NCBI RefSeq assembly: GCF_019464535.1
Contig: NZ_CP080507.1
Coordinates: 330,001-362,000, forward strand
Direction: 5' to 3'
From: Horticoccus luteus
GTDB lineage: Bacteria; Verrucomicrobiota; Verrucomicrobiia; Opitutales; Opitutaceae
DNA length: 32,000 nt
Position 1 is the first letter of the stretch, and each line of letters opens with the position of its first letter. Positions 1 through 18,114 of the stretch are shown here, piece after piece. Below the pieces are notes generated by a model. The model ran no database searches. It saw only the letters and a list, made by a program, of their open reading frames with translations, and was not told the DNA's origin. The position numbers and the translations under genes were made by a program.

Positions 1-507
1 CATGGCTTTGATCGAGGTGGAGACGAAGACTCCGAGGCTTTTCAGCAGGAAGCGCACGGAGTTGATGAGGTTGACACGGCTGCGCACAAGGGCCTCGCGG
101 ACTTTGAGCCGCACGAGGGCGCGTTGCGTGTCCTCGCTGCGGTGGCGGACCGGGCTGAGCAGCTGCGGGTCGGCGCGGCCCAGGCGCGCGAGCATCCGCG
201 CGTCCTCGCGGTCGGACTTGGTCTGGCTTTGCGAGATGGCGCGCAGCTTGCGGGCGTTGGCGACGATGACGGGGTGGCCGAGTGTGGTGACGAGACGCGA
301 GATCCACGGGCTGTGCGTGCCGGTCTCCATCACGATGGTCGCGCCCGGGTAGCGGGCGCTGAACGCGGTCAGCACTTCGCGGGTGTTGACGATCACTTCC
401 TCGGCGAGGATCTCGCCCGAGGCATCGAGGACGCACGCGTGGTGGCGGCGGTCCCCGAGGTCCAAGCCAACGGTTAGTTTTTCAACAGGAGGGGTTTTGG
501 TTTTCAT
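1..507 (-). CDS. IS110-family (DEDD/RuvC-like) transposase, N-terminal part; gene runs off left edge
   Basis: Own translation of the minus strand from ATG at 507-505: MKTKTPPVEKLTVGLDLGDRRHHACVLDASGEILAEEVIVNTREVLTAFSARYPGATIVMETGTHSPWI... The GLDLGD..CVLD and VMETGTH motifs are typical of the IS110/IS1111 N-terminal domain. The ORF is absent from the supplied track because it has no stop inside the window. Confidence 0.75.
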   Translation of the reverse strand, partial: MKTKTPPVEKLTVGLDLGDRRHHACVLDASGEILAEEVIVNTREVLTAFSARYPGATIVMETGTHSPWISRLVTTLGHPVIVANARKLRAISQSQTKSDREDARMLARLGRADPQLLSPVRHRSEDTQRALVRLKVREALVRSRVNLINSVRFLLKSLGVFVSTSIKAM

Positions 508-545
508 ACGGCGGGAGATTATACACCCGCCTTCTCATCCCTACT

Positions 546-559
546 GGTTGAACCAAGCC
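546..559. repeat. Left inverted repeat of module A, GGTTGAACCAAGCC
   Basis: Its reverse complement matches 2970-2982 (GGCTTGTTCAACC) at 13 of 14 positions. It lies 3 bp inside the left repeat boundary. Confidence 0.7.
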
Positions 560-654
560 GCTGCGCGGCGGGGGTGAGCGGGTGTATATAGTGCGGGGCG
601 GGGCACGAGCGGAAGGATGGGCGGGAGGGCGGTGGCTGGCAAGGCTGCGGGTCT

Positions 655-1620
655 ATGCCCAAATCAAAATCGACGGGAAGAGAGTCCACGCACGCGTCCA
701 CGCTGCGGGGTGGCGCCAGGAAGATCGCGGCACCGGATCCGGAGTCGGTGCAGCGTTTCGCGGAGACGATGCGGCTGCGTTCGCTGGCGGCAGCGACGCA
801 GGCCGAGTATCTGCGGTTTGTCCGCAAGTTGGCGACGCGCCACGGGGGCGATCCGGCCGCGCTCGATGAGGCCGCGGTCCGCGCGCATCTGCTGCGGTTG
901 AAGGACGAACACCACTACTCGCCCTCGTCGATGCGAACCGCGGTGGCGGCGATGCGGGCCTACTTCGGCCTGCACCTCGGGCGCGACTGGAAGCTGTTCG
1001 ATCTGGTGCGTTCGCCCTCGGCGCAAAAGCTGCCGACGGTGCTCACGCGCGCAGAGGTGGCGCGGCTGTTCGCGGTGGTGCGCGAGTTGCGTTTCCGCAC
1101 ACTGCTGCGGTTGATCTACGCGTGCGGATTGCGCATCGGCGAGGCGGTCAACCTGGAGGTGCGCGATCTGCGCGAAGCGGGTCGCGTGCATATCCGCGAG
1201 GCGAAGGGCAACAAGGAGCGCTACGTGCCGCTGCCGGAGGCGATGTTGCACGAGTTGCGCGCGTTCTGGCGGACGCACCGGCATCCGCGGTGGATTTTCC
1301 CGGGGGTCGGCCGCGGCTGGCGCGAGCAACCGGCGCGCGCGGCGCAACTGGCCGCCGCCGTCGAGCCGCTGGGCGTGGGCTCGGTGCAGCATTGCCTGCG
1401 GCTGGCGCGGGCCGAGGCGCGGCTGCCGGCGGGCACGGTGGTGCATACGCTGCGGCATTCGTATGCGACGCATCTGCTCGAGGAGGGCGTGTCGATCCGG
1501 CTGATCTCGGCGTATCTGGGGCACGCTTCGCTGGAGACGACGCTGATCTATACGCATCTGACGGCGGTCAACGAGAGCCACGCTCGCGCGGCGGTCGCGC
1601 GGTTGCTCGAACCACGCTGA
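655..1620 (+). CDS. Tyrosine recombinase / phage-integrase-family protein (321 aa)
   Basis: ATG-started ORF. Catalytic-type motifs are present: ACGLRIGEA (Arg), [10 protein letters not shown] (Lys), [15 protein letters not shown] (HxxR), [15 protein letters not shown] (His..Tyr). An N-terminal SAM-like core-binding pattern is also present. Confidence 0.9.
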
Positions 1621-1623
1621 CCG

Positions 1624-2703
1624 GTGCCGGTCCTCGCCGACTGGCTGGCGCGCGTCCGCGTGCCGGAGCGTTGCGCGCCGCGGGCGCGGCGCGCGCTCGC
1701 AGCGATCCGCCGCTGCCGCACGCCCGCCTTGGGCGGGCATGTGTATCGCTGCACGGATTGCGCGGGCACGGACTTCGCGTATCACAGCTGCCACCACCGC
1801 GCGTGTCCGCGCTGCGGCGGCGAGCGCACCGCGGCGTGGACGGCGCAGCAGGAGGCGCGGCTGCTGCCGGTGCCGTATTTTTTGGTGACGTTCACCGTGC
1901 CGGAGGAACTGCGCGCGGTCTTCGCCGCCGAGCCGGCGTTGATGCACGACCGGCTCTTCCGCGAGAGCGCGGCGACGTTGCAACAAGTCGCGGCGGAGCG
2001 GCGGTTGCTCGGTGCGGAACTCGGCTTCGTCGGCGTGCTGCACACCTGGGGCCGGCAGCTCCAGCATCATCCGCACGTGCATTATATCGTGCCCGGCGGC
2101 GGGCTCAGCCCCGACGGCAAAAAATGGTTGAACGCGCGGCAACGCGACTGGCTGCTGCCGGTGGCGAAGCTGGCGGCGGTGTTTCGCGGGCGGATGGAGG
2201 CGGTGCTGCGCGCGAGCGCTACGGCGCGGCACGCTTCGATTCCGGCCGGCACGTGGCGGAGCCGTTGGGTCGTGCATTGCCAGTCGGCCGGCAGGGGCGA
2301 GGCGGTCGTGCGCTATCTCGCGCGCTACGTCAGCCGCACGGCGATCAGCGACGAGCGCCTCGTCGCCGCCGACGACGAGCGCGTGGTGTTTAACTATACC
2401 GATGCGAAGACCCAGCAGCGGCGGCAGTGCACGCTCGGCGCGGAAGAGTTCCTGCGGCGGTATTTGCAGCACGTGCCGCCGGCCGGCCAGCATCGCGTGC
2501 GTTACTTCGGCTGGTTGCACCCGGCGGCGCACGCCCGCCGGATGACGGTGGAGACGCTGCTGCAAAAGCCGATCGTGCTCGCGGCGCCGCCGCCGGAGGC
2601 GCCGCGCTGGCACTTGCGTTGTCCGCACTGCGAACGGTTCACGCTCGTGCGCGTGGGCACGCTGCCGCGGCAGGCGCGCGCGCCGCCCCTTTGCCAGCGA
2701 TGA
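1624..2703 (+). CDS. IS91-family transposase (Zn-binding N-terminus + Y2 HUH rolling-circle domain, 359 aa)
   Basis: GTG start lies 3 nt after the recombinase stop. The Cys/His cluster CTDCAG..HSCHHRACPRCG marks the transposase zinc-binding domain. HHPHVHYIVPGGG is an HUH motif and VRYLARYVSR is a YxxxY motif. Confidence 0.9.
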   Translation: MPVLADWLARVRVPERCAPRARRALAAIRRCRTPALGGHVYRCTDCAGTDFAYHSCHHRACPRCGGERTAAWTAQQEARLLPVPYFLVTFTVPEELRAVFAAEPALMHDRLFRESAATLQQVAAERRLLGAELGFVGVLHTWGRQLQHHPHVHYIVPGGGLSPDGKKWLNARQRDWLLPVAKLAAVFRGRMEAVLRASATARHASIPAGTWRSRWVVHCQSAGRGEAVVRYLARYVSRTAISDERLVAADDERVVFNYTDAKTQQRRQCTLGAEEFLRRYLQHVPPAGQHRVRYFGWLHPAAHARRMTVETLLQKPIVLAAPPPEAPRWHLRCPHCERFTLVRVGTLPRQARAPPLCQR

Positions 2704-2969
2704 GTATAAAGATCAGGGACCAACTTATTATATTATTGCGACTCGCTCCCCGTGTCGCCGGCGGAAGCCTTGGTCGCGACGGACGCAAGACGGCTCGCGA
2801 GCCCGGTGACGGGCGGCGGACACCCTCTCGGCGGGCGAAAACGGACGCCGCCGGCACGTGCGCCCGCGACCGGCGAAGGATGCCGCCGTCCGGCGCTCCG
2901 CCCATCGGCGGTGGGCGGCCACTACAAAACGCATAAGCGGCGGTCGGAACCGCGGACGCCTTCGAAACG

Positions 2970-2982
2970 GGCTTGTTCAACC
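2970..2982. repeat. Right inverted repeat of module A, GGCTTGTTCAACC
   Basis: Partner of 546-559. It lies 41 bp inside the right repeat boundary, so placement is asymmetric relative to the left end. Confidence 0.7.
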
Positions 2983-2990
2983 CGCGTCCC

Positions 2991-3010
2991 GCTGCGCGCT
3001 ACGGCGCAGC
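2991..3010. repeat. Perfect 7-bp stem / 6-nt loop hairpin GCTGCGC-GCTACG-GCGCAGC in the distal right end of module A
   Basis: Direct inspection. The hairpin is identical in module B at 5830-5849. Confidence 0.8.
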
Positions 3011-3023
3011 AGAACGCTCAGAG

Positions 3024-3314
3024 TTAGCCCTTTGGTTCATTTTCGATTTTCATCCGAAAATACAAGCGACGCGTGAACGATACGATTGCATCGAAGAAGA
3101 GTCCGACAACCAAACATTCAGTGGCGAGCAACAAGATAACGACTGCAGCATTCATGTCGTGCGGATTCCCGCTCACCGCGATGCCTGCTTCGATAGGAAG
3201 AATGACAGGATACTGATACCAATGAATCGTCGGACTATTCTTGGGCACGACGGCCGCACAATAACCGAAGAACACAAGAGCGCCGGCTATGACAGTGAGG
3301 ATGTGCCTCGTCAT
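3024..3314 (-). CDS. Hypothetical small membrane protein (about 96 aa, two predicted TM helices) in a low-GC islet
   Basis: Internal ATG at 3314 of track ORF 3024-3395; the longer form would start inside module B. Hydrophobic stretches are ILTVIAGALVFFGYCAAVV and AAVVILLLATECLVVGLFF. Local GC is about 47% against about 66% in the surroundings. The TAA stop is exactly adjacent to the module A boundary. Confidence 0.4.
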   Translation of the reverse strand: MTRHILTVIAGALVFFGYCAAVVPKNSPTIHWYQYPVILPIEAGIAVSGNPHDMNAAVVILLLATECLVVGLFFDAIVSFTRRLYFRMKIENEPKG

Positions 3315-3348
3315 TCTGGAGCTCGTTTTTTGGCTAACGTTTGAGATC

Positions 3349-3375
3349 AGCCACGGGCGCTTGGGCCCGTTGGCT
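3349..3375. repeat. Hairpin with 10-bp stem and one extrahelical T (AGCCACGGGC / GCCCG-T-TGGCT)
   Basis: Direct base-pair check: 3349-3358 pairs with 3365-3375, T3370 is bulged, and the loop is 3359-3364. It sits between the left end of module B and the small ORF start. Confidence 0.6.
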
Positions 3376-3493
3376 GTAGCGACTGGTTGAACCAAGCCGC
3401 TGCGCGGCGGGGGTGGGCGGGTGTATATAGTGCGGGGCGGGGCACGGGCGGAAGGATGGGCGGGAGGGCGGTGGCTGGCAAGGCTGCGGGTCT

Positions 3494-4459
3494 ATGCCCA
3501 AATCAAAATCGACGGGAAGAGAGTCCACGCACGCGTCCACGCTCCGGGGTGGCGCCAGGAAGATCGCCGCGCCCGATCCGGAGTCGGTGCAGCGTTTCGC
3601 GGAGACGATGCGGCTGCGTTCGCTGGCGGCGGCGACGCAGGCCGAGTATCTGCGGTTTGTCCGCCAGTTGGCGGCGCGCTGCGGCGGCGATCCGGCCGCG
3701 CTCGATGAGGCCGCGGTCCGCGCGCATCTGCTGCGGTTGAAGGACGAACACCACTACTCGCCTTCGTCGATGCGAACCGCAGTGGCGGCGATGCGGGCCT
3801 ACTTCGGCGTGCACCTCGGGCGCGACTGGAAGCTGTTCGATCTGGTGCGTTCGCCCTCGGCGCAAAAGCTGCCGACGGTGCTCACGCGCGCAGAGGTGGC
3901 GCGGCTGTTCGCGGTGGTGCGGGTGCCGCGGTTCCGCACACTGCTGCGGTTGATCTACGCGTGCGGATTGCGCATCGGCGAGGCGGTCAACCTGGAGGTG
4001 CGCGATCTGCGCGAAGCGGGTCGCGTGCATATCCGCGAGGCGAAGGGCAACAAGGAGCGCTACGTGCCGCTGCCGGAGGCGATGTTGCACGAGTTGCGCG
4101 CGTTCTGGCGGACGCACCGGCATCCGCGGTGGATTTTCCCGGGGGTCGGCCGCGGCTGGCGCGAGCAACCGGCGCGCGGGGCGCACCTGGCCGCCGCCGT
4201 CGAGCCGCTGGGCGTGGGCTCGGTGCAGCATTGCCTGCGGCTGGCGCGGACCGAGGCGCGGCTGCCGGCGGGCACGGTGGTGCATACGCTGCGGCATTCG
4301 TATGCGACGCATCTGCTCGAGGAGGGCGTGTCGATCCGGCTGATCTCGGCGTATCTGGGGCACGCTTCGCTGGAGACGACGTTGATCTATACGCATCTGA
4401 CGGCGGTCAACGAGAGCCACGCCCGCGCGGCGGTCGCGCGGTTGCTCGAACCACGCTGA
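3494..4459 (+). CDS. Tyrosine recombinase (copy B, 321 aa)
   Basis: About 9 amino-acid differences from 655-1620. All catalytic motifs are retained. Confidence 0.9.
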
Positions 4460-4462
4460 CCG

Positions 4463-5542
4463 GTGTCGGTGCTCGCCGACTGGCTGGCGCGCGCCCGCGT
4501 GCCGGAGCATTGCGCGCCGCGGGCGCGGCGCGCGCTCGCAGCGATCCGCTGCTGCCGCACGCCCGCCTTGGGCGGGCACGTGTATCGCTGCACGGAGTGC
4601 GCGGGCACGGACTTCGCGTATCACAGTTGTCACCATCGCGCTTGCCCGCGCTGCGGCGGCGAGCGCACCGCGGCGTGGACGGAGCGGCAGGAGGCGCGGC
4701 TGCTGCCGGTGCCGTATTTCCTGGTGACGTTCACCGTGCCGCAGGAACTGCGCGCGGTCTTCGCCGCCGAGCCGGCGTTGATGCACGACCGGCTCTTCCG
4801 CGAGAGCGCGGCGACGTTGCAACAAGTCGCGGCGGAGCGGCGGTTGCTCGGTGCGGAACTCGGCTTCGTCGGCGTGCTGCACACCTGGGGCCGGCAGCTC
4901 CAGCATCATCCGCACGTGCATTATATCGTGCCCGGCGGCGGGCTCAGCGCCGACGGCAAAAAATGGGTGAACGCGCGGCAACGCGACTGGCTGCTGCCGG
5001 TGGCGAAGCTGGCGGCAGTGTTTCGCGGGCGGATGGAGGCGGTGCTGCGCGCGAGCGCTCCGGCGCGGCACGCTTCGATTCCGGCCGGCACGTGGCGGAG
5101 CCGTTGGGTCGTGCACTGCCAGCCGGCCGGCAGCGGCGAGGCGGTCGTGCGCTATCTCGCGCGCTACGTCAGCCGCACTGCGATCAGCGACGAGCGCCTC
5201 GTCGTCGCCGATGACGAACGCGTGGTGTTTAACTATACCGACACGAAGACGCAGCAGCGGCGGCAGTGCACGCTCGGCGCGGAAGAGTTCCTGCGGCGGT
5301 ATTTGCAGCACGTGCCGCCGGCCGGCCAGCATCGCGTGCGTTACTTCGGCTGGCTGCACCCGGCGGCGCACGCCCGCCGGATGACGGTGGAGACGCTGCT
5401 GCAAAAGCCGATCGTGCTCGCGGCGCCGCCGCCGGAGGCGCCGCGCTGGCACTTGCGCTGCCCGCACTGCGAACGGTTCACGCTCGTGCGCGTGGGCACG
5501 CTGCCGCGGCAGGCGCGCGCGCCGCCCCTTTGCCAGCGATGA
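4463..5542 (+). CDS. IS91-family transposase (copy B, 359 aa)
   Basis: About 15 amino-acid differences from 1624-2703. Zn-binding, HUH and YxxxY motifs are retained. Confidence 0.9.
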   Translation: MSVLADWLARARVPEHCAPRARRALAAIRCCRTPALGGHVYRCTECAGTDFAYHSCHHRACPRCGGERTAAWTERQEARLLPVPYFLVTFTVPQELRAVFAAEPALMHDRLFRESAATLQQVAAERRLLGAELGFVGVLHTWGRQLQHHPHVHYIVPGGGLSADGKKWVNARQRDWLLPVAKLAAVFRGRMEAVLRASAPARHASIPAGTWRSRWVVHCQPAGSGEAVVRYLARYVSRTAISDERLVVADDERVVFNYTDTKTQQRRQCTLGAEEFLRRYLQHVPPAGQHRVRYFGWLHPAAHARRMTVETLLQKPIVLAAPPPEAPRWHLRCPHCERFTLVRVGTLPRQARAPPLCQR

Positions 5543-5837
5543 GTATAAAGATCAGGGACCAACTTATTATATTATTGCGGCCCGCGCCCCGTGCCGCCGG
5601 CGGCAGCCTTGGCCGCGACCGACGCAAGACGGCTCGCGCCCCCGGTGACGGGTGGCGGACTCCCTCTCGGCGGGCGAAAACGGACGCTACCGGCACGTGC
5701 GCCCGCGACCGGCGAAGGATGCCGCCGTCCGGCGCTCCGCCCATCGGCGGTCGGAGGCCACTACAAAACGCATAAGCGGCGGACGGAACCGCGGACGCCT
5801 TCGAAACGGGCTTGTTCAACCCGCGTCCCGCTGCGCG

Positions 5838-6110
5838 CTACGGCGCAGCAGAACGCTCAGAGATCGGCTCTTTCTGGGACGCGCGCAATAGAACGACGCG
5901 CTTTTCATCGGTCGCCGAAAGGCGGCCATAATCTACGTCGATCATGATCCCACGACAGGAACAACGGGCACTTTCTTTCGGGTGCGATTCGAGCACCTCG
6001 CCGCACGAGGGACACTGATAGTAAAGGTCCGCACCGGTAGGCCATCCCTTCGAGCAATCAAAGGGCACGACTTTACTGGCGAACCGGGAGTTGAACTCAG
6101 AAGCCGTCAT
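5838..6110 (-). CDS. Hypothetical small protein (90 aa) with Cys-rich zinc-ribbon-like pattern
   Basis: ATG start at 6110. The pattern CPSCGEVLESHPKESARCSC is present. Local GC is about 53%. The last 8 codons and the TAG stop lie inside the distal hairpin segment of module B. Confidence 0.45.
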   Translation of the reverse strand: MTASEFNSRFASKVVPFDCSKGWPTGADLYYQCPSCGEVLESHPKESARCSCRGIMIDVDYGRLSATDEKRVVLLRASQKEPISERSAAP

Positions 6111-6216
6111 TTCTTCCGCCGATCAGTGTTATTCGCCCATACTCAGTGTGGCAATGCCAGAACTGAACGAGAGCGGGGGTTGCAGTTGAGGTGGGGAACG
6201 GAAACTCGGTTAGCCG

Positions 6217-7692
6217 TTGTGTCGTCGTGGTTTGGTTTCATGCGACGGCGGTCGGTCGGCGGCGAAACCTTGGGAATCGGATTGCTCGGGGCCGCGCAAA
6301 AGCCACACTGGCAGTATGGCTTTAGCAGGCGAGCGCACAGAGCAAAATCTGGACGAAATCGTGTCATTTCCGGAGTGGCGCGAAGTGTTGAACGGGGCGA
6401 GCGCATGGTCGGCGGAAGTGAAGCAGGCGCATGTCAGGGCAATTTTAGGGTTGTTGCGAGCTTGCAAATCCACGGGCCGGCCGCTGTCGGCGGGTTTCAT
6501 CCGCTGGCATCTGGCGCGTGCTGGTTTGACGGAGAACGCGCGGCGGGCCGAGCGCGCGGCGTTCGCCTGGCTCTTCAAGGCGGCCAGAGCGGCGGGCAAG
6601 ACGCGCCCGGCGGCGCGCGGGTTTGGGGAGCCCGAGGTCGGGGCGCAACGGCCGGCGGATAACCCGCGGCGGTCGGGGCCGGGAGCGGGGGCGGGAGCGA
6701 GGCCGGCCGTGCCGCCGCTGGCGGCGGCGGATCAGGGCGGAGCGGAGTGGGAGCGCGCGTTGATCACGGCCATCCGGCGCAAGGGATTTTTGTGGCGCAC
6801 GGAGCAGACGTATCGGGCATGGGCGGCGCGGTTCGCGCGGTTCCTGGCGCCGCGCTCGCCCGAGGCGGCCTCCGGGGACGATGTGGCGGCGTTTCTCTCC
6901 GCGCTGGCCGTCGAGCAGCGCGCAGCGCCGTCCACGCAGAAGCAGGCGCTCAATGCGCTGGTGTTCTTCATGCAGGAAGCGTTGCGGATGGATCTGGGTG
7001 AAATGGATTTTCGGCGCGCGCGCGCTCGCGAGAGAATACCGACCGTGTTGAGCAAGGCGGAGGTGCGGCAGGTGCTGGAGCAACTGCCGGGCGGCTACCG
7101 ACTGATGGCGGAGGTGATGTATGGGAGCGGGCTGCGGTTGATGGAACTGCTGCGGCTGCGCGTGCACCACCTGGATCTGGCGCGCGGGCAATTGAACGTT
7201 TACGGCGGGAAAGGCGACAAGGACCGGCTGACGGTGCTGCCGGAATCGCTGCGGGAAAAACTGGAGGCTCATCTGGCCCGACTGCGGGAGATTTTCGCGC
7301 AGGACCGGGCGGCGGACGCGCCGGGAGTGTGGTTGCCGGAAGGGCTGGCCCGGAAATATCCCAAGGCGGGGGTGACGTGGGAGTGGCAGTGGTTGTGGCC
7401 GTCGCGCGAATTCATGCAGGACCCGGAGACGGGGCGGCGGCGGCGACATCATATCCTCGACGGGACGTTCCAGAATGCGGTGCGCAAGGCGGCGGGCGCG
7501 GCGGGGATGACGAAACGCGTGACGCCGCATGTGCTGCGGCACTCGTTTGCGACGCATCTGCTGGAGGCGGGCACCGATATCCGGACGGTGCAGGAACTAC
7601 TGGGCCACCAGAGCGTGGAGACGACGCAGATCTATACGCATGTGATGCAGAAGCCGGGGCTGGGCGTGCGGAGTCCGCTGGATGCGGGGTGA
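6217..7692 (+). CDS. intI: Integron-type integrase (IntI family) with long N-terminal extension; start uncertain (TTG 6217, ATG 6316 or GTG 6709)
   Basis: The C-terminal 320 aa align by eye to IntI1, including the IntI-specific insertion. Compare LPEGLARKYPKAGVTWEWQWLWPSREFMQDPETGRRRRHHILDGTFQNAVRKAAGAAGMTKRVTPHVLRHSFATHLL with IntI1 [70 protein letters not shown]. This is followed by DIRTVQELLGHQSVETTQIYTHV..GVRSPLD. Confidence 0.85.
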   Translation: MCRRGLVSCDGGRSAAKPWESDCSGPRKSHTGSMALAGERTEQNLDEIVSFPEWREVLNGASAWSAEVKQAHVRAILGLLRACKSTGRPLSAGFIRWHLARAGLTENARRAERAAFAWLFKAARAAGKTRPAARGFGEPEVGAQRPADNPRRSGPGAGAGARPAVPPLAAADQGGAEWERALITAIRRKGFLWRTEQTYRAWAARFARFLAPRSPEAASGDDVAAFLSALAVEQRAAPSTQKQALNALVFFMQEALRMDLGEMDFRRARARERIPTVLSKAEVRQVLEQLPGGYRLMAEVMYGSGLRLMELLRLRVHHLDLARGQLNVYGGKGDKDRLTVLPESLREKLEAHLARLREIFAQDRAADAPGVWLPEGLARKYPKAGVTWEWQWLWPSREFMQDPETGRRRRHHILDGTFQNAVRKAAGAAGMTKRVTPHVLRHSFATHLLEAGTDIRTVQELLGHQSVETTQIYTHVMQKPGLGVRSPLDAG

Positions 7693-7708
7693 AGGGGTGC
7701 GGGCGGGC

Positions 7709-7796
7709 GGACGGCGGCGGAGGACGGACGGCGGACGGCGGAGGACGGACGGCGGAGGACGGACGGCGGACGGCGGAGGACGGAGGACGGAGGAGG
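7709..7796. repeat. Degenerate heptanucleotide tandem repeat (GRCGGAS, about 12-13 units), G-rich on + strand
   Basis: Direct inspection of GGACGGC GGCGGAG GACGGAC GGCGGAC GGCGGAG ... It begins 17 bp after the intI stop. Confidence 0.8.
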
Positions 7797-7827
7797 GAAA
7801 CCTGAAGGAGCAGAGGGGGGCGCGAAA

Positions 7828-7859
7828 GGATGCCGGGTGAGGGCACCCGGCCCACAGGG
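7828..7859. repeat. REP-like unit GGATG(C/T)CGGGTGAGGGCACCCGGCCCACAGGG containing a CCGGGTG-AGGG-CACCCGG hairpin
   Basis: A 32-bp direct repeat with 7984-8015, one mismatch. Related units occur at 10901-10917 and 10947-10963. Confidence 0.8.
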
Positions 7860-7983
7860 ATGAGGTGAAGCGCGGAGGCGTTCCGCAACGGGACGAGCGG
7901 GCGGATTAGGCGATCGTTCTCGTTATCTTAATCTTTCTCGGGTTGGCGAGCGGAAGGGCGAGAGGGCGGAGAACACTGCGGTC

Positions 7984-8015
7984 GGATGTCGGGTGAGGGC
8001 ACCCGGCCCACAGGG
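7984..8015. repeat. REP-like unit, second direct copy
   Basis: See 7828-7859. Confidence 0.8.
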
Positions 8016-8037
8016 CGGGACGGACGGGCGCGAGAAC

Positions 8038-8061
8038 GATTACGATTATGATTACGATTAC
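8038..8061. repeat. Hexanucleotide tandem repeat GATTAC x4 (one unit GATTAT)
   Basis: Direct inspection. It is part of the low-GC CGAGAACGATTACG... repeat family. Confidence 0.8.
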
Positions 8062-8091
8062 GAAAATGGGGGAAATTTTGGTGGAGTCCTC

Positions 8092-9570
8092 TTACGCGGA
8101 GAGGTGGTGGCTGAGTTCTGATACGGGCATCGGTTCGAGTTGATGGGGGGCGTTGAATAGAGTGGCGAGGAGCGTGGCCTTCTCCGAGCTGTAGTGAGCA
8201 GTGAAGGCGGCGGCGGCTTTTTGCTGAAGGAGCGGGATGCCGTCTTTCCTCCGGCGGCGGTGGCCGATCGGGAAGTGCACTTCGATGCGGTCGGTGGCGG
8301 TGCCGTCGGTGAAGAAGATTTGGACGGCGTTGGCGATGGAGCGTTGCCCGGCGTCGAGGTAGTCGCGGCTGTAGGTTTTCTCTTCGCGCACAACCATCTT
8401 CGCGCGGAGGGCATCGATGCGGGGATCGGCGGCGATTTTGTCTTCGTAATGTTCGGCGGTGAGGTCGCCGAACAGGAGGCCGATGGCGGTCATATATTGC
8501 AGGCAGTGATCGCGGTCGGCGGGATTGTGGAGCGGGCCGGTTTTATCGATGATGCGGATGGCGGACTCGTGGGTGGTGAGTTCGATGCGGGCGATGTCGG
8601 CAAGGCGGTCGCGGACGAGCGGGTGGAGTTGCACGGCGCATTCGACGGCGGTCTGGGCGTGGAATTCGGCGGGGAAGGAGATTTTGAAGAGGACATTTTC
8701 CATCACATAGCTGCCGAGCGGGCGGGCGAGTTTGACGGGTTGGCCGCGGAAGGAGACATCTTGGAAGCCCCAGGTTTTGGCGGTGAGGACGGAGGGGTAG
8801 CCCATCTCGCCAGTGAGGGCGATGAGGGCGAGGCGGACGGCGCGGCTGGTGGCATCGCCGGCGGCCCAGGATTTACGGGAGCCGGTGTTGGGCGCGTGGC
8901 GGTAGGTGCGGAGGGCGGAGCCATCGAGCCACGCGTGGGAGAGGGCGTTGACGATTTGGTCGCGGGTGCCGCCGAGCATGGCGGTGGTGACGGCGGTGGA
9001 GGCGATGCGGACGAGGAGGACGTGATCGAGGCCGACGCGGTTGAAGGAGTTTTCGAGGGCGAGGATGCCTTGGATTTCGTGGGCCTTGATCATCGCGACG
9101 AGGAGGTCGCGGACGGTGAGGGAGGAAGGACGAATGGCGGATGACGAATTGAAGGCGCGGACGGGCGTGCCGGCGGCGGCGTTGCGCGAGAGCCAGTCGG
9201 CGGTGGCGAGAAGGGCGCCGAGGTTGTCGGAGGGATGACCCCATTCGGCGGCGAGCCAGGTGTCGTTGAAATCGAGCCAGCGGACGAGGGTGCCGATGTT
9301 GAAGGCGGCTTGCACAGGATCGAGCTCGTAGGGCGTGCCGGGGACGCGGGCGCCGTTGGCGATGGTGGTGCCGGGGACGACGGGGCCGAGGAGTTTCGTG
9401 CAGGCGGGATATTTCAGCGCCATGATGCCGCAGGCGAGGGTGTCGAGGAGGCACCAGCGGGCGGTGTCGAGCGCCTCGGCGGAGGGCGCGTTGTAGTGAA
9501 GCGCGTAGTCGGCGAGGGTGACCAGGAGGTCGTCGGGCGGCGGGCGGAGGTTGGAAATGGGAGAGGACAT
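8092..9570 (-). CDS. prpD: 2-methylcitrate dehydratase (MmgE/PrpD family)
   Basis: About 492 aa from the internal ATG at 9570 (MSSPISNL..). Length and sequence are typical of PrpD. The longer track ORF (to 9651, TTG) would start inside an intergenic palindrome. Confidence 0.85.
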
Positions 9571-9615
9571 GGAGGCAGTAGTGAGTAGCGGGTAGCGGGC
9601 CAGAGGTGCGCGAGG

Positions 9616-9698
9616 AATCGTTCTCGTTCTCTTACTCGTAATTTTTCTCAAGATTGGGAAATGGGAGAACGAGAAAGATTACGTGAACGAGAACGATT
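9616..9698. repeat. 83-bp imperfect palindrome, low GC (arms AATCGTTCTCGTTC / GAACGAGAACGATT plus inner CGTAAT..TTTCTC pairing)
   Basis: The outer arms at 9616-9629 and 9685-9698 form a perfect 14-bp inverted repeat. It fills the prpC-prpD gap and overlaps the prpC stop codon (9697-9699). Confidence 0.8.
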
Positions 9699-10872
9699 AT
9701 AGGCGTTGGTCGAGCGGGACGAAGGGGCGCGGGGCGGGGCCGGTGTAGTGCGCGCTGGGGCGGATGATTTTGCCGTCCTGGCGTTGCTCGATCACGTGGG
9801 CGCCCCAGCCAGCGGTGCGGGCGACGACGAAGAGCGGCGTGAACATGGGCGTGGGTATGCCCATGAGGTCGTAGGCGACCGCGCTATACCAATCGAGGTT
9901 GGGAAACATTTTCTTGAGTTCCCACATGACGTGTTCGATGCGCTCGGCGATGGCGAAGCGTTCGGGGCGGCCGCCGGCGGTGCAGAGTTCGCGCGCGATG
10001 TCTTTGATGATGGCGTTGCGCGGATCGCTGATCGTGTAAACGGGATGGCCGAAGCCGATGACGATTTCCTTGCGGGCGACGCGAGCGCGAAGGTCGGCCT
10101 CGGCTTCGTCGGCGGTGCGGTAGCGGAGTTGGATTTCGTGGGCGACTTCGTTGGCGCCGCCGTGTTTGGGGCCGCGGAGGGCGCCGATGGCGCCGGTGAG
10201 GCACGCATACATGCCGGAGCCGGTGCCGGCGATCACGCGCGCGGTGAACGTGGAGGCGTTGAACTCGTGTTCGGCGTAAAGAATGAGGGAGCGATCGAGG
10301 GCGCGCACATGCGCGGGATCGGGGGTGCGTTGATGGAGCAGGCGGAGGAAGTGCGCGGCGACGGAGGGTTCGGCGGTTTCGACGGCGATGCGTTGGCCGG
10401 TGGTCGAAAAATGATGCCAGTAGAGCAGCAGACCGGGCAGGCAGGCGATGAGGCGGTCGATGATGGCGCGGGCGGCGGGTGCATCGGTCGGGCCGGCGCT
10501 GCCGGGGGCGGAGGGCTCGGGGTTGAGTGCGCCGAGGGCGGATACGCCGGTGCGCAGGACGTCCATCGGATGGGTGGCGGCGGGGAGTTGTTCGAGGATG
10601 GCGAGGACGGGCGCGGGGAGGCTGCGGAGCGAGGCGAGGCGCGCGTGGTAGGCGGCAAGTTCGGCGCGATCGGGCAGGTGTTCGTGGATGAGGAGGTGCG
10701 CGACTTCCTCGTAGGTGGTCTCGCGCGCGAGGTCGGCGATGTCGTAGCCGCGGTAATGCAGGTCGTTGCCGGAATGACCGACGGTGCAGAGAGCGGTGTT
10801 GCCGGCGACGATGCCGGAGAGGGCGACGGACTTCTTGGGTTTGAAAGCGGGAGGTATATCGGAGGTGCTCAT
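9697..10872 (-). CDS. prpC: 2-methylcitrate synthase / citrate synthase family
   Basis: 391 aa from the ATG at 10872 ([20 protein letters not shown]..). Citrate-synthase motifs GFGHPVYT and ..HEFNAST.. are present. It lies between prpB and prpD. Confidence 0.85.
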
Positions 10873-10900
10873 GGCAAGGGGGGCGGAACTGGAGAACGCT

Positions 10901-10963
10901 GTGGGTGAAGTGCCCTCTCGCCGAACCTTGTGCACTCTGGCGGAGTGAGGGCACCCCGCCCAC
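10901..10963. repeat. Inverted pair of REP-like units (GTGGGTGAAGTGCCCTC ... GAGGGCACCCCGCCCAC)
   Basis: Arms 10901-10917 and 10947-10963 are reverse complements except for the central 4 nt. They lie in the prpB-prpC intercistronic gap. Confidence 0.7.
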
Positions 10964-11012
10964 AACTTCACGTTGGGTGGTTCTAACGGAGCGGCGCGGT
11001 GGGGGAGAGTGT

Positions 11013-11906
11013 TCAGGGTTTCGCGGGCGGGGTGTAGCCGAGAACGGAATAGAGTTCGGCGCGGGGTTGCATGCGGTCGAGGGTGGCGCGTTGGGTGCCG
11101 TCGCGTTGGAGAGCGGCGTAAACATCGCGCGAGGCGGCGGCGGCGGCGCGGGCGGCGCTGAGAGGATAAAGCGCGAGCGCGATGCCGGCGGAGCGAAGCT
11201 CGTCGAGGGTGAAGAGGGGCGTCTGGCCGAACTCGGTGAGGTTGGCGAGGACGGGGGCGCGGACGGCGGCGGTGAACGCGCGGTAGTCGTCGAGGGTGCG
11301 CAATGCTTCGGCGAAAATCATGTCGGCGCCGGCGGCGAGGTAGCTTTGCGCGCGGGCGATGGCGGCGGGGAGGCCTTCGACCGCGGCGGCATCGGTGCGC
11401 GCCATGACGACGAAGGTGGGATCAGGCTTGCCGGTGAGGGCGGCGCGGACGCGGGCGCACATTTCGTCGGACGACACGAGGTGTTTGCCGGGCAGGTGGC
11501 CGCAGAGTTTGGCGGGGACTTGATCTTCGAGATGAACGGCGGCGACTCCGGCGGCGGCGAGGGCGCGGACGGTGGCCGCGGGGTCGTCCCAACCGGTGTC
11601 GATATCAACGAGGAGCGGGAGGTCGACGCGGCGCGTGATGCGGCGGGCATCGGTGAGGACGTCGTCGAGGGTGGTGGTGCCGGTGTCGGGGAGGCCGCAG
11701 GAGTAATTGGCGACGCCGGCGCCGGAGAGGTAGAGGGCGCGGAAGCCGGCGCGTTGGGCGAGGAGCGCGGCGTAGGCGTTGAGGGTGCCGACGACTTGCA
11801 GCGGTGACGCGGCGGCGAGGGCGGAGCGGAATTTGGCGCCGGGAGTCGGGGAGGAGCTCACGGGCGCGAAGGTGTCACGGGAGCGGGGTGGTTGTCGAGG
11901 GGGCAC
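11013..11906 (-). CDS. prpB: Methylisocitrate lyase (PEP mutase/isocitrate lyase superfamily)
   Basis: Motifs include ..LYLSGAGVA.., [29 protein letters not shown]. Start is uncertain (GTG 11906 or GTG 11861). Confidence 0.85.
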
Positions 11907-12022
11907 AGAGGACGCAGAGCTCTGACACAGAGGAAGCCGGAGGCCGTGAGCGGGAGGGGTGGCGTGGGAGGCGGATAGGTGCCGATGGGGGATGGGCGAG
12001 GCGGCGGGGCGAAACGCTGACG

Positions 12023-12044
12023 CGTTCCGCTACGAGGCGGAACG
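12023..12044 (-). terminator. Hairpin CGTTCCGC-tacgag-GCGGAACG downstream of the aldo/keto reductase gene
   Basis: Perfect 8-bp stem about 35 bp after the stop at 12081. There is no clear U-tract. Confidence 0.3.
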
Positions 12045-12080
12045 GTGGCTTGGTGCGGTGCAGGGAGCGGGTTGCGGTGA

Positions 12081-13067
12081 TTACCAGGCGTAGGCTTCGG
12101 GGGCGGGGCCGCCGGGGCCGGGGAAGATTTCGTCGAGTTGGCGGAGCGTGTCGGGCGAGAGCGTGACGTCGAGGGCGCGGAGAGCGTCGGTGAGTTGCGC
12201 CATCGTGCGGGGGCCGATGATGGGGGCGGTGACGGCGGGTTGCGCGAGGAGCCAGGCGAGGGCGACGTCGGCCGGCGGGAGGTCGAGCGTGCGGCAGAGA
12301 GTTTCGTAGCGTTCCAGTTGGGGGCGCCTGGCCTCGATTTGTTTTTGGAAATCGGGGGCGGCGCGGCGGCCGGAGGCGGCTTTGGCGAGCGCGCCGCCGA
12401 GGAGACCGCCACCGAGGGGACTCCATGGGATGAGGCCGACGCCGAAGTGCGTGCAGGCGGGAATCACTTCGAGTTCGAGGGTGCGGGCGGTGAGGTTGTA
12501 GAGGCTTTGTTCGCTGACGAGGCGCGGTTGCTGGCGCAGGTCGGCGGTGGTGCAGGCGGTCGCGAGATCCCAGCCGGCGAAATTGCTGGAGCCGACGTAG
12601 TAGATTTTGCCTTGGCGCTGGAGCGTTTGCATGGCGCCGAGCCATTCGTCGATCGGGCAGGCGCGGTCGACGTGGTGCATTTGATAGAGATCGAGGTGAT
12701 CGGTCTGGAGGCGGCGGAGGCTGGCTTCGCATTCGCGCATGATTTTGCGCGCGCTGAGGCCGCGATCGAGATTCGGGTCGGGGCGTGCGGGGCGGTCCAT
12801 CATGCCGAAGACTTTGGTGGCGAGGACGACGAAGTCGCGGCGGCCGCCGCCTTGGGCGAGCCAGCGGCCGATGATGTTTTCGGTGACGCCTTCGCCGCGC
12901 TGGCGGCCGTAAACATCGGCGGTGTCGAAGAAATTAACGCCCTGCTCGACGGCGCGGTCCATGATGGCAAACGCGTCGGCTTCGCTCGTGAAGGGGCCGA
13001 AGTTCATGGTGCCGAGGCAGAGACGGGAGACGCGGAGGCCGGAGCGGCCGAGGTGGGTGTAGTGCAT
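12081..13067 (-). CDS. Aldo/keto reductase family oxidoreductase (328 aa)
   Basis: The N-terminus MHYTHLGRSGLRVSRLCLGTMNFG and overall AKR pattern (..FFDTADVYG..) are present. Confidence 0.85.
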   Translation of the reverse strand: MHYTHLGRSGLRVSRLCLGTMNFGPFTSEADAFAIMDRAVEQGVNFFDTADVYGRQRGEGVTENIIGRWLAQGGGRRDFVVLATKVFGMMDRPARPDPNLDRGLSARKIMRECEASLRRLQTDHLDLYQMHHVDRACPIDEWLGAMQTLQRQGKIYYVGSSNFAGWDLATACTTADLRQQPRLVSEQSLYNLTARTLELEVIPACTHFGVGLIPWSPLGGGLLGGALAKAASGRRAAPDFQKQIEARRPQLERYETLCRTLDLPPADVALAWLLAQPAVTAPIIGPRTMAQLTDALRALDVTLSPDTLRQLDEIFPGPGGPAPEAYAW

Positions 13068-13288
13068 AAAACGGGGGGGGCGAAAGGGTGGGTGATGCGG
13101 GTGAAGCGCGAACGGCGGCAGGGCGGGGCGGATGGCGCGGGCGCCGGGACGGAATAACCTGTGGTCAAGCGCGAGGGTTTTGCGAACGCGAGGGCGAGAT
13201 CAGCGGCGCGTCGGCCGGGGTTACGACCGGAGGGAAGCGTCGCTGAGAAATGCCGCGCGGGACACGCCGCCGAAATCGGACCGTGGGA

Positions 13289-13350
13289 GATCGTGCGCTT
13301 TTTCTTCGTCGAGTTCGTTCGCGAAAACGAGCGGGAGAAGGAGGACGATC
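13289..13350. repeat. Imperfect palindrome of the GATCGT..CGTTCGCGAAAACG..ACGATC family
   Basis: Ends GATCGT (13289-13294) and ACGATC (13345-13350), with central TTCGCGAA. It lies immediately downstream of the cfa-like stop and resembles 9616-9698. Confidence 0.5.
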
Positions 13351-13359
13351 GTGTGGGGA

Positions 13360-14373
13360 TCAGGCGGGTTTGGTGAAGAGGTAGTGGCTGACGAGCCACT
13401 CTTCGCCGTCGCGGTAGCGCCAGAGTTCGGAGCAGGCCAAATAGAACACGCGCCAGTAGGCCCACCATTTCACGGCGTGTTCGCGGCCGTAGATGTCGAC
13501 GAAGAGCGGGAGAATTTCGTCGCGATGAGCGTCCATGTTTTTCAACCAGTGCTCGGCGGTGCGGTGATAGTGGGTGCCATTGACGCGCCAGTCGGAGAGG
13601 AGGGTGAGATCGCGTTGAAACTGCGGCAGGAGGTCGTGAGCGGGCATTTGTCCGCCCGTGAAAAAGTAGCGACTCATCCAGTCGGAGGCGTCGCGGGCGA
13701 CGAAGTGATACGAGAGGCGGGTGTGGGTGAAGATATGAACGAAGAGGAGGCCGCCGGATTTGAGCCAGCGGGCGATGTGGGCGAGGAGTCGCTCGTAGTT
13801 TTTCAGGTGTTCGAACATCTCGATGGAGACGACGCGGTCGAATTGCGCGGGGGCGATGTCGAAGGCGTTGATATCGCAGGTGAGGATGCGGAGATTGATG
13901 AGGCCGCGTTTGCGCGCTTCGGTGTCGATAAACTCTTTTTGGGGGCGGGAGTTGGAGACGCCGGTGATCTGGGCGCGCGGGAAACGTTGCGCGAGATAGA
14001 GCGAGAGGGAGCCCCAGCCGCAGCCGAGTTCGAGGATGTGCTGGCCGTCGGCGAGGCGGGCGCGTGCGACGTAGAGCGCGAGCATGGCGTCTTCCGCGGC
14101 GGCGAGGGTGGCGTCGGGGCGTTCGTAGAGGCAGCAGGAGTATTTGAGGCGCGGGCCGAGGCAGAAGCGGAAGAACGGCGGCGGGACCTCGTAGTGTTGC
14201 TCGTTGGCGGCGCGGGTGTCTTCGGCGATCGGGCGGGTGCGGAGATCGGCGACGTAAGCGGCGCGGTCGTAATCGGCGGAAGCGGCGCGCAGGCGCTGGC
14301 GGAGCAGGCGGCGGATGCCGAGGCGAAGGAGCCAGTCGGGCAGGAGGTTTTTTTCGAGCAGGCGGTCGATCAT
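13360..14373 (-). CDS. Cyclopropane-fatty-acyl-phospholipid synthase-like SAM-dependent methyltransferase (337 aa)
   Basis: Starts at the internal ATG 14373 (MIDRLLEKNLLPDW..). The SAM motif ILELGCGWGSL is present. The Ser/Pro-rich 132-aa extension of the track ORF overlaps the upstream gene and is rejected. Confidence 0.85.
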   Translation of the reverse strand: MIDRLLEKNLLPDWLLRLGIRRLLRQRLRAASADYDRAAYVADLRTRPIAEDTRAANEQHYEVPPPFFRFCLGPRLKYSCCLYERPDATLAAAEDAMLALYVARARLADGQHILELGCGWGSLSLYLAQRFPRAQITGVSNSRPQKEFIDTEARKRGLINLRILTCDINAFDIAPAQFDRVVSIEMFEHLKNYERLLAHIARWLKSGGLLFVHIFTHTRLSYHFVARDASDWMSRYFFTGGQMPAHDLLPQFQRDLTLLSDWRVNGTHYHRTAEHWLKNMDAHRDEILPLFVDIYGREHAVKWWAYWRVFYLACSELWRYRDGEEWLVSHYLFTKPA

Positions 14374-14392
14374 GCGAAGGAGTGGAAGAGCG

Positions 14393-15190
14393 TTAGCGCG
14401 GGGCGCGGCGCGGAAGCCACGGGATGAACGCCGAAGTGGTTTGCTGATAGCGGTGGTAAGCGTCGCCCTTGGAGCGGAGGGATTGTTGCTCGGCGATCGG
14501 AATGCCCGTGACGCGCAGGAGCAGGTAGAGAATCGCGGCGGGAGCGATGACGGCGAGCCAGCCCCACGGGGCGGCGAGCGCGAAAAGGAAATAGGCGACC
14601 CACACGAGCCATTCGCAAAAATAATTGGGGTGACGGCTGAAGCGCCAGAGGCCGACGTCGCAGACGCGGCCGCGGTGGGAACGGTGGCGTTTGAAGGCGG
14701 CGAGTTGCGCATCGGCGGTGGCTTCGCCGAGGACGGCGAGGAGCCAGAGGGCGGCAGCGACGAATTCAACCGGGTGAAAACGCGGATCGCGGTGGAGAGC
14801 GATCAAGAGGAACGGGACGCCGAGGAGCACGACGGAGGCGGCTTGGAGTTGGAAGAAGCCGGCCATTTTGGGCGCGAAGTTTCCCGCCCAGTCACGGCGA
14901 AGCTGGGCGTAACGGGTGTCTTCGGCGGGATGGTGCCGGGCGATGCGGAGGAGGAGATGCGTGCCGAGGCGCGCGCTCCAGATGACCGCGAGCGCGCCGA
15001 GGAGGAGACGGCGCGGCAGCCAGCCGGGGGCGGCGAACGCGTAGAACGCGACGAGCAGGCCGAAGGCGTAGGACCACGCGATGTCGACGATGCCGTAGTT
15101 GTCGAGGCGACGCGCGAGGAGGTAGAGGCAACCGAACACCACGCACAGGGCCACGAGTGCGGCGAGGGGGAGGAGGAGAGCGGGCGGCAT
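14393..15190 (-). CDS. DUF1295-family membrane protein (steroid-reductase/ICMT-like fold, 265 aa)
   Basis: Starts at the internal ATG 15190 (MPPALLLPLAAL..). It has multiple TM helices and the family motif GLWRFSRHPNYFCEW. Confidence 0.8.
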   Translation of the reverse strand: MPPALLLPLAALVALCVVFGCLYLLARRLDNYGIVDIAWSYAFGLLVAFYAFAAPGWLPRRLLLGALAVIWSARLGTHLLLRIARHHPAEDTRYAQLRRDWAGNFAPKMAGFFQLQAASVVLLGVPFLLIALHRDPRFHPVEFVAAALWLLAVLGEATADAQLAAFKRHRSHRGRVCDVGLWRFSRHPNYFCEWLVWVAYFLFALAAPWGWLAVIAPAAILYLLLRVTGIPIAEQQSLRSKGDAYHRYQQTTSAFIPWLPRRAPR

Positions 15191-15194
15191 GGCG

Positions 15195-15590
15195 TCAGGC
15201 GAGAAAGAGGACCGCGATGCCAGCGGCGGCGAGGAGCGGACCGAGCAGGCCGATGCGGTGGGTGCGGCGCGTGAGCACCTCGGAGAAGGGGGCGGTGCGC
15301 GGGACGGAGCAGAGCTCGGAGAGCGAGAACGCGGCGAGGGCGATGTTGCCGAGGATAAGGATGGCGATGAGCCAAGCGAGGCGGGCGAGCCAGTGGGTGC
15401 GTTTATAAAACGCCCAGACGTAAAACGTGAGAAAACCGAAGAACGCGTCGAAGAGCGTGGCGATGAACCACGGATGGGTGAGGACAGGACGCGGGACGGC
15501 GAACAGGGGACATTGCGCGCCGGCCCAGATCGTGACGGCGAGCATCGCGACGAGGACGGCCACGGCGAGAAGGCGCAGGGTGACAATCAT
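15195..15590 (-). CDS. Small integral membrane protein (131 aa, about 4 TM), unknown function
   Basis: Starts at ATG 15590 (MIVTLRLLAVAVLVAML..). ATGA overlaps the stop of the upstream DUF1365 gene, consistent with translational coupling. Confidence 0.65.
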   Translation of the reverse strand: MIVTLRLLAVAVLVAMLAVTIWAGAQCPLFAVPRPVLTHPWFIATLFDAFFGFLTFYVWAFYKRTHWLARLAWLIAILILGNIALAAFSLSELCSVPRTAPFSEVLTRRTHRIGLLGPLLAAAGIAVLFLA

Positions 15591-16471: not shown

Positions 16472-16488
16472 GGAGTAGCGAGGTGGTG

Positions 16489-18096: not shown

Positions 18097-18114
18097 GAGG
18101 AGGGGGAGGCGGCT

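Follow-up and report, generated by a model that had tools for sequence, protein, structure and literature searches.

IS91-family insertion sequences encoding an integron-integrase-like tyrosine recombinase probably specialise in one-orientation insertion into integron attC sites

Why should two copies of a mobile element lie head to tail a few hundred base pairs apart, and what is an element with its own transposase doing with a tyrosine recombinase? Both questions are raised by a stretch of 32,000 nucleotides from Horticoccus luteus (contig NZ_CP080507.1, positions 330,001 to 362,000; hereafter the window, to which all positions refer), in which two modules, each coupling a gene for a tyrosine recombinase (YR) to one for an IS91-family Y2-HUH transposase (Tnp), stand beside the gene of an integron integrase (IntI). 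Our analysis indicates that the copies inserted independently into the integron with its intI gene at 6217-7692, in the attC sites of its first two cassettes (1 and 2), and that each copy splits its attC between the last two bases of the R'' box. We consider it very probable that the module is an IS91-family insertion sequence (IS) that encodes an integron-integrase-like YR and is specialised for insertion, in one orientation, into the attCs of cassette arrays.

An ungapped self-comparison at an offset of 2,839 bp delimits two repeats of 2,481 bp each on the same strand (543-3023 and 3382-5862), outside of which matching is at chance level, and 358 bp (3024-3381) separate copy 1 from copy 2. 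The copies align without a gap and differ at 75 nucleotides, only two of which lie within the leftmost 112 bp, while the final 79 bp are identical; the proteins differ at 9 residues in YR (321 aa) and 15 in Tnp (359 aa). Since the ratio of nonsynonymous to synonymous divergence (dN/dS) between copies is 0.31 for YR and 0.27 for Tnp, both module genes are under purifying selection, and because the copies are 3% diverged, an assembly duplicate is excluded. The first-pass annotation of this DNA had described the size, strand, spacing and offset of the modules, the 9/321 and 15/359 amino-acid differences and four intact open reading frames (ORFs) in the same terms, and our comparisons agree with it; its views of the copies as separate insertions under selection and of the termini as functionally constrained are supported. 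Its module limits stand as the extent of the repeat, but the first four nucleotides of each repeat (ACTG, 543-546 and 3382-3385) are spacer of the target attC and not part of the element, because the nucleotides before GTTGAAC vary among relatives.

The arrangement around the copies is that of a cassette array (see the table). Read on the minus strand from intI, the order is the putative attI, cassette 1, the R'' box GCCGAT|C, copy 2 in antisense (5861-3386, ending ...GGCTTG-GTTCAA|C), the remainder of attC 1 and cassette 2; there follow the R'' box GGCTAA|C (3029-3023), copy 1 in antisense (3022-547), 4 nt of attC 2 spacer and the end of an IS110-family element. Read this way, each copy opens with its conserved hairpin, which ends in GTTGAAC, and continues with tnp and the YR gene. 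Both cassettes have a minus-strand ORF directed away from intI, as is typical of cassettes. Past copy 2, the body of attC 1 occupies 3385-3337, with G|TTAGCC as its R' box, and the remainder of this site matches the covariance model described below with 81.9 bits; the site is in the training set, and its architecture is that of 118 sites outside it. The 358-bp spacer thus consists of cassette 2 and part of attC 1, so that the head-to-tail placement of the copies amounts to the occupation of two consecutive attCs. Insertion also fuses the upstream cassette ORF to the element: the ORF in the window (over 5838-5862) and one at a related locus (L001, 1868-1931) share the tail ...EPISERSAAP, encoded by the element, which indicates that the element changes the C-terminus of the cassette protein upstream of its landing site.

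The target was defined from related elements. A transposase scan of species-representative genomes yielded 78 loci, mostly in metagenome-assembled genomes (MAGs) of Opitutaceae/Verrucomicrobiota (52-85% identity), with a second clade in Acidobacteriota (41-46% identity). Close Opitutaceae-type relatives also occur on short contigs of other bins (L014, 2,603 bp, Gemmatimonadaceae; L009, Phycisphaerales; L026, Thiobacillus), reflecting either horizontal spread or mis-binning of a repeated element. At four loci (L001, L010, L065 and L050), a bona fide intI lies 1.2-5 kb downstream and is co-oriented. In the left flanks, the 55-100 bp upstream of the element form an imperfect palindrome with an outer box of the RYYYAAC type (GGCTAAC, GCCTAAC, GCCGAAC, GCCCATC and others), the arms of which read AGCCAC ... 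G-T-TGGCT with an invariant bulged T around a variable, covarying centre, and a minus-strand cassette ORF starts 5-20 nt past the outer box. The right flanks of 40 distinct sites give the consensus G(40) T(35) T(38) N G(31) G(26) C(32), after which the sequence is T-rich; their first four nucleotides are GTTN in 33 of the 40, the others being GATC (4), GATT, GTCA and GTGG. On the minus strand this consensus is A-rich and then GCCNAA|C, that is, an attC R'' box, in which the cassette ORF often has its stop codon. In unoccupied attCs of the same type (L010, L019 and L022), GCCGAAC or GGCTAAC stands where occupied sites have the GTTCAAC of the element. Consecutive attCs are occupied by separate copies at further loci, three in L011 and two each in L023, L025 and L068. 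The first-pass annotation had suggested that a highly specific target brings the copies together and had proposed comparing the flanks of relatives for a consensus; the G-T-T-N-G-G-C of these 40 sites and the occupied consecutive attCs bear this out, the attC R'' box being the common target rather than random sites.

To delimit the sites, automatic folding under constraints was used for inspection by eye only, as it picked distant GTT boxes; the counts rest on an attC covariance model (R1) built from 12 left flanks and one unoccupied site. At the module-selected Opitutaceae loci the model finds 77 sites (E <= 1), 12 of them matched by construction, all on the strand of the module genes and in arrays: L008 and L059 have seven sites apiece, and L050 has six in the interval from the module to intI; at nine Acidobacteria loci it finds none. 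An independent test set of 80 metagenome loci was chosen by IntI alone (the best 80 of 553 relatives), and its 29 longest loci contain 53 sites (E <= 0.1), all on the intI-sense strand and all upstream of intI. The 130 sites together thus have one orientation relative to the module or to intI, and the module genes are antisense to the array in all cases. Among IntI-selected loci with more than 1.5 kb upstream, module genes are present in 2 of 18 (complete in L098, a fragment in L090). These counts and the architecture of the flanks, imperfect palindromes with RYYYAAC/GTTRRRY cores and an extrahelical base, separated by cassette ORFs, indicate that the palindromes beside the modules serve these integrons as attC sites.

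The genes of the module identify the family of the element. Both transposases match NF033538 with 368 bits (cutoff 125), Y2_Tnp (PF04986) with 188 bits and Zn_Tnp_IS91 (PF14319) with 95 bits, and the HUH motif (HVH, ...HHPHVHYIV...) and the YxxxY pair (...RYLARYVSR...) are legible in both. The YR carries the Pfam domains Phage_integrase and SAM_4 (Phage_int_SAM_4), and its catalytic Tyr lies in ...LIYTHL. The YRs of IS91 elements have been described as an 'Integron-like' subgroup, the closest relatives of IntI, without the IntI insertion (bioRxiv 10.1101/542381), and the YR of the window is in line with this, its nearest model being IntI and the insertion missing. Across about 50 related loci, the YR gene lies directly upstream of tnp wherever the contig permits, and the identities of YR and Tnp to the window proteins are correlated (r = 0.93 overall and 0.75 within the Opitutaceae clade). 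Look-ups of the exact YR and of both transposase sequences returned no record, and an Rfam scan of the window at gathering thresholds gave no matches. An AT-rich patch, GTATAAAGATCAGGGACCAACTTATTATATTATTGCG, identical in both copies, follows directly after the transposase stop (2700-2740 and 5539-5579), whereas the GC content elsewhere in the element is about 70%; the patch may be a promoter or have a role in replication.

The ends of the element are those expected of the IS91 family. In active members, the target tetranucleotide (GTTC/CTTG) abuts oriIS downstream of tnpA, with palindromes at ori; at the ter end, a GTTC-type tetranucleotide comes first and a subterminal palindrome next; and a bottom-strand circle of single-stranded DNA (ssDNA) with an ori-ter junction is the functional intermediate (PMC13181058). 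In the modules, sequence conserved among about 30 related copies begins exactly at GTTGAACCAAGCCGCTGCGCGGCG (GTTGAAC, 547 and 3386), the preceding 4-5 nt being variable. The ori hairpin at the other end is kept with the element: when 32 sequences are aligned, compensatory changes appear at 6 of its 10 predicted pairs. The flanks of the copies have no direct repeat, and hence no target-site duplication, and the two ends differ, GTTG with GCCGCTGCGCGGC standing on the left and the covarying hairpin on the right. On these grounds the module can be placed in the IS91 family; its host platform, with an IntI above the curated cutoff, is a bona fide integron.

On the strand complementary to tnp, the junctions read NAAC|element...GTTCAAC|, and the joined ends, written on the minus strand, are GGCTTGGTTCAAC|TCTGA GCGT TCT GCTGCGC CGTAGC GCGCAGC GGG ACGC GG GTTGAACAAGCCC. 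The ori-ter junction predicted from them, GTTCAAC|TCTGAGCG, has a computed fold of -24.7 kcal/mol (z = -5.4 against shuffled sequences), a hairpin of 55-67 nt in which a GTTCAAC/GTTGAAC core-box stem is followed by internal loops, another stem and a variable stem, a layout with a loose likeness to that of an attC. In the element hairpin and the host attC alike, the extra unpaired bases are found on the minus-strand 5' arm. At two loci (L014 and L031) a right end is joined straight to a left end at G|TTGAAC, exactly the predicted junction, representing either a tandem insertion or an assembled circle. Two further derivatives of the ends were noted. In L008, the sequence past the right end (about 7380-7400) reads CCCTCAGAG-TTGAAC-CCTCAGAG-TTAGGC and includes a 14-nt remnant of a second tandem copy, in which its first 6 nt meet its last 8 nt at GAAC|C, either a deletion footprint, which could be microhomology-mediated, or a cleavage signature. 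In L062, a derivative of about 290 bp (9129-9420) has both element ends and no ORF and lies beside an attC match (9031-9135), with the look of a non-autonomous, MITE-like (miniature inverted-repeat transposable element) copy.

How, then, might such an element reach its target? The break lies at AA|C of the R'' box on the top strand of the array, the mirror of the position of the host IntI on the bottom strand. Starting from the observed target, orientation, junction positions, covarying hairpin and IS91-type ends, the following route may be proposed. The Y2-HUH transposase would nick the strand complementary to tnp, 3' of NAAC beside the hairpin (ori) end, and rolling-circle replication would displace the nicked strand as far as the left (ter) end, ...GTTCAAC|, freeing a single-stranded circle, an intermediate suggested by family membership and the architecture of the ends. 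The ori-ter junction of this circle would fold into the 55-67-nt hairpin, and the circle would be joined into AA|C of the R'' box of a host attC. The YR most likely gives attC recognition and possibly strand exchange, as IntI does for folded attCs, and the HUH enzyme would either furnish the single-stranded substrate or carry out the transfer itself. As to the enzyme that makes the integration break, we infer a part of the YR: its role in attC recognition, possibly in catalysis, is favoured because the specificity reaches far past a tetranucleotide, because it follows the structural position of the box, including the GATC variants that break the IS91 rule of a T at position 2, and because the nearest relatives of the YR act on folded attC DNA. 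A simple IntI-like mode is disfavoured, because the YR is without the extra domain of IntI, the element hairpin is not seen by the attC model and relatives in Acidobacteria insert at non-attC sites.

Several observations weigh against this explanation. The junctions expected from a cut by the HUH enzyme 3' of NAAC and from one by the YR at AA|C are identical but for one shared G, and they favour the recombinase-driven insertion suggested in the first-pass annotation no more than ordinary rolling-circle transposition. The best model for the YR is TIGR02249, with 160 bits in two stretches, below the IntI cutoff of 265, and a pairwise alignment with the local IntI shows 32% identity and 35 gap positions opposite extra IntI sequence; we take these to be the missing IntI-specific insertion, which reads extrahelical bases, and by the family threshold and the additional domain the module YR is not an IntI. 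The host-attC covariance model gave no match to the element hairpin at E <= 1, so that 'attC-like' describes a structural analogy of the element end, in architecture only. The identity of the attCs relies on our own covariance model, trained in part on the flanks in question, and some loci depart from the pattern, with non-attC right flanks in L026, L072, L052, L013 and L016 and an atypical left flank in L098. Scans with the cassette-2 ORF, IntI and the exact proteins gave no orthologous empty site for either insertion in the window; the metagenome scan with the cassette-2 ORF found no relative, and the best match to IntI in such a scan was about 72% identical. Finally, the Acidobacteriota loci (L036-L066, for example L043 4921-7440), with Tnp 41-46% and YR 25-34% identical to those of the window, have the same layout over about 2.5 kb, with inverted repeats GTTTGAAC/GTTCAAAC and an ori hairpin of about 100 nt ending ...CTAAC|GTTT, and their flanks have a loose consensus that is not an attC (left ...AAG(C/G)GC|, right |GTTTNNCGGTAC, |GTTT...). 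In these relatives the YR and a long ori hairpin are retained, yet insertion is into sites other than attCs; thus, the YR is not tied to attC as such.

The explanations that compete with ours differ mainly in the work that they assign to the YR. In a canonical IS91 mode, the HUH transposase would both excise an ssDNA circle and transfer it 3' of NAAC, attCs being hit since their cores read G-TT-N and are often single-stranded or extruded, and the YR would stand in the place of IS91 Orf121 as an accessory for targeting, termination accuracy, regulation or dimer resolution. This is a serious candidate, to which we give somewhat less than an even chance: at ori flank and ter end alike, every junction lies where a cut 3' of NAAC in the strand complementary to tnp would place it; IS91 needs TnpA only, with Orf121 modulating termination and insertion and the bottom-strand circle as substrate (PMC13181058); and the YR gene stops 3 nt before the start of tnp. 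The L008 remnant at GAAC|C resembles cleavage after GAAC, a microhomology-mediated deletion being equally possible. The consensus G-T-T-N-G-G-C with its T-rich stretch, however, exceeds a tetranucleotide, tracks the R'' box and includes GATC, which breaks the rule of a T at position 2 (PMC13181058). As the attC has to be recognised by something, for which the IntI-like YR is the first choice, the canonical mode becomes a variant of the explanation that we prefer. At the other extreme, the YR alone would perform both excision and integration by recombination between hairpins on the array top strand, with the HUH enzyme serving only for single-stranded copies or a separate route of dispersal; the two junctions, R''host-hairpin-GTTGAAC and GTTCAAC-attC body-R', would then act as foldable attC-like sites. 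On the minus strand both junctions do have directly oriented AA|C boxes, each able to pair with a GTT box across a hairpin, the unpaired extra bases are on the same (5') minus-strand arm in the element hairpin and the host attC, and IS91-associated YRs group with IntI (bioRxiv 10.1101/542381); yet the YR is without the extra domain of IntI, an intact and selected HUH gene and full IS91-type ends have been kept, and Acidobacteria relatives have the same YR layout but no attC targets, which leaves this mode doubtful. A division of labour between the two enzymes, in which the HUH enzyme makes an ssDNA circle with an attC-like junction and the YR recombines this hairpin with the attC top strand at AA|C of R'', a 'mirror cassette', is an equally tentative proposal, and we think it rather unlikely in this specific form. 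If true, it would be a second, strand-inverted recombination system inside integrons, would give a first function to the recombinase of IS91-YR elements and, these YRs being the closest relatives of IntI, would offer a concrete candidate for the way in which the system of integron integrase and attC originated or became parasitised.

Two further explanations do without a specialised element. The modules might be ordinary, if very large, cassettes that the host IntI mobilises at G|TT of R' boxes, and boxes of the GTTGAAC type do bound the element, the hybrid sites keeping the AAC/GTT pairing by which IntI could in principle move the element together with the distal attC. We regard this as very unlikely and rejected it, given that a cassette moves together with its distal attC whereas here the body of the distal attC varies between loci, that the hairpin conserved with the element is instead the proximal one, which on this explanation would be part of the neighbouring cassette, and that the genes are antisense to the array. 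Least likely of all, to the point of being negligible, is a segmental duplication, an assembly artefact or a one-ended IS91 read-through that copied module and spacer. The equal length, same orientation and fixed 2,839-bp offset of the copies would suit it; it was rejected on the 75 substitutions, dN/dS values of about 0.3, a spacer present once, flanks that belong to two different attC/cassette contexts and a pattern of occupied consecutive attCs that recurs in unrelated MAGs. The first-pass annotation had likewise judged the pair to be neither an assembly artefact nor a recent duplication. Its alternative, that one-ended read-through had captured the spacer, fails, the spacer being an ordinary cassette with attC halves on both sides and not duplicated.

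The module that emerges shares much with IS91, IS801 and IS1294: the transposase family, insertion without duplication of the target, two unlike ends that have subterminal palindromes, a GTTC-like left tetranucleotide (here GTTG) and GTTN abutting the end downstream of tnp. As in IS91, where Orf121 is co-expressed, there is an upstream ORF, and an ssDNA circle with an ori-ter junction is to be expected. Unlike in these elements, the upstream ORF encodes a 321-aa tyrosine recombinase, the target is a core of 7 bp or more within a structured attC with strict orientation relative to the array, and the ends share a 13-bp inverted repeat that closes the junction hairpin. IS91-family entries with an upstream phage-integrase-type ORF in ISfinder have the same gene pair; relative to such catalogued IS91-YR elements, what is defined here is the target, for the Opitutaceae clade. 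Integron attCs are also entered, site- and orientation-specifically, by the IS1111-attC group of the IS110 family and by group IIC-attC introns. These have the targeting in common with the module and employ unrelated enzymes (a DEDD transposase and a reverse transcriptase/ribozyme, respectively), so that the likeness is one of function only; the module does not belong to the IS1111-attC group, as it encodes HUH and YR proteins and DEDD_Tnp_IS110 is found only in the neighbour at 1-542. With integron cassettes, the module shares the AA|C / G|TT core-box break, a circular intermediate with a folded imperfect palindrome (predicted here) and an IntI-related recombinase, but it uses the R'' box, on the opposite strand and at the opposite end of the attC, has its own enzymes and lies antisense to the array.

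In the full-text literature searched, which left ISfinder and TnPedia text and subscription journals outside, we found neither a target or role for the YR nor attC targeting by IS91-YR elements. IS91 elements with a tyrosine recombinase and the kinship of that YR to IntI are already known; the attC targeting is, to our knowledge, new. About 40 related insertion sites give a precise and testable answer on the target for one clade, and the targeting suggests what the extra recombinase is for, with the element hairpin recreating a hairpin-flanked core site at each junction. With IS1111-attC and group IIC introns as the first two, such elements would add a third enzyme class to the mobile elements that target attCs, and would tie the rolling-circle production of ssDNA to a recombinase family that works on folded ssDNA. 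They may also bear on the origin of integrons and on the disruption of cassette arrays, each insertion splitting an attC and fusing the upstream cassette ORF to the element. For annotation, integron pipelines should recognise such modules instead of reading them as tandem duplications.

Table. Positions of the element copies, their parts and the surrounding integron in the window
Feature	Position	Strand	Basis and remarks
Element copy 1 (IS91-family with YR)	547..3022	+	Conservation over about 30 left and 40 right ends of relatives; limits +/-1 nt, as G at 547 and G at 3023 are shared with the target
YR, copy 1	655..1620	+	321 aa; integron-integrase-like, without the IntI-specific insertion
IS91-family Y2-HUH transposase (Tnp), copy 1	1624..2703	+	359 aa; start codon 3 nt past the YR stop
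Left (ter-like) end, copy 1	547..569	+	Inverted repeat GTTGAACCAAGCC, overlapping the subterminal palindrome GCCGCTGCGCGGC (557-569)
Right (ori-like) end, copy 1	2970..3022	+	Inverted repeat GGCTTGTTCAAC (2970-2981), then covarying hairpin 'Y' (2982-3022, about 41 nt)
Element copy 2	3386..5861	+	YR 3494-4459, Tnp 4463-5542, right inverted repeat 5809-5820, hairpin 5821-5861
IS110-family element end	1..542	-	Transposase N-terminus 507->1, leaving the window; Pfam DEDD_Tnp_IS110, 78 bits
Target core box, attC 2 (R'')	3023..3029	-	Minus GGCTAA|C, plus G|TTAGCC; contains the TAA stop of the cassette-2 ORF
Gene cassette 2 (spacer)	3024..3336	-	ORF 3311->3024, about 95 aa, hydrophobic, no family match
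Remainder of host attC 1	3332..3392	+	Bottom strand; closes with GTTGAAC (7 nt), which is already the left end of copy 2
Cassette-1 ORF	5838..6110 (6110->5838)	-	90 aa, weak DUF7695 match; last 25 nt run into the copy 2 hairpin
Target core box, attC 1	5862..5868	-	Minus GCCGAT|C, plus G|ATCGGC; box variant also flanks relatives in L001, L003 and L032
Putative attI	6113..6140	.	28-bp block TTCTTCCGCCGATCAGTGTTATTCGCCC, invariant in four integrons with IntI 57-72% identical to the window IntI
Integron integrase (IntI)	6217..7692	+	TIGR02249, 382.5 bits (cutoff 265); core from about 6730

Some features of the surroundings deserve mention. The IS110-family end adjoins copy 1 four nucleotides past the GTTCAAC box, where the rest of attC 2 is expected, and is possibly an attC-targeting IS of the IS1111-attC kind nested beside copy 1. 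The block at 6113-6140, lying between the first cassette and intI, is a putative attI by its position and invariance. The IntI itself has an N-terminal extension of about 170 aa (6217-6729) without a Pfam match, conserved in relatives (motif ...SFPEWK/R.AL...); among the IntI matches listed (80 of 553 relatives), most start at query residues 1-16, inside the extension, which appears to mark a whole IntI lineage. Straight after the intI stop lie G-rich short tandem repeats, GGACGGCGGAGGACGGACGG, with periods of 7, 14 and 21 (7682-7808), followed by a 32-nt direct repeat, GGATGYCGGGTGAGGGCACCCGGCCCACAGGG, the copies of which are 156 bp apart (7828-7859 and 7984-8015). GC skew, in 1-kb windows, is very strongly positive, +0.25 to +0.36, at 6500-19000, over minus-strand housekeeping genes such as a PrpD/MmgE homologue (8092-9651), and positive skew is much weaker within both modules.

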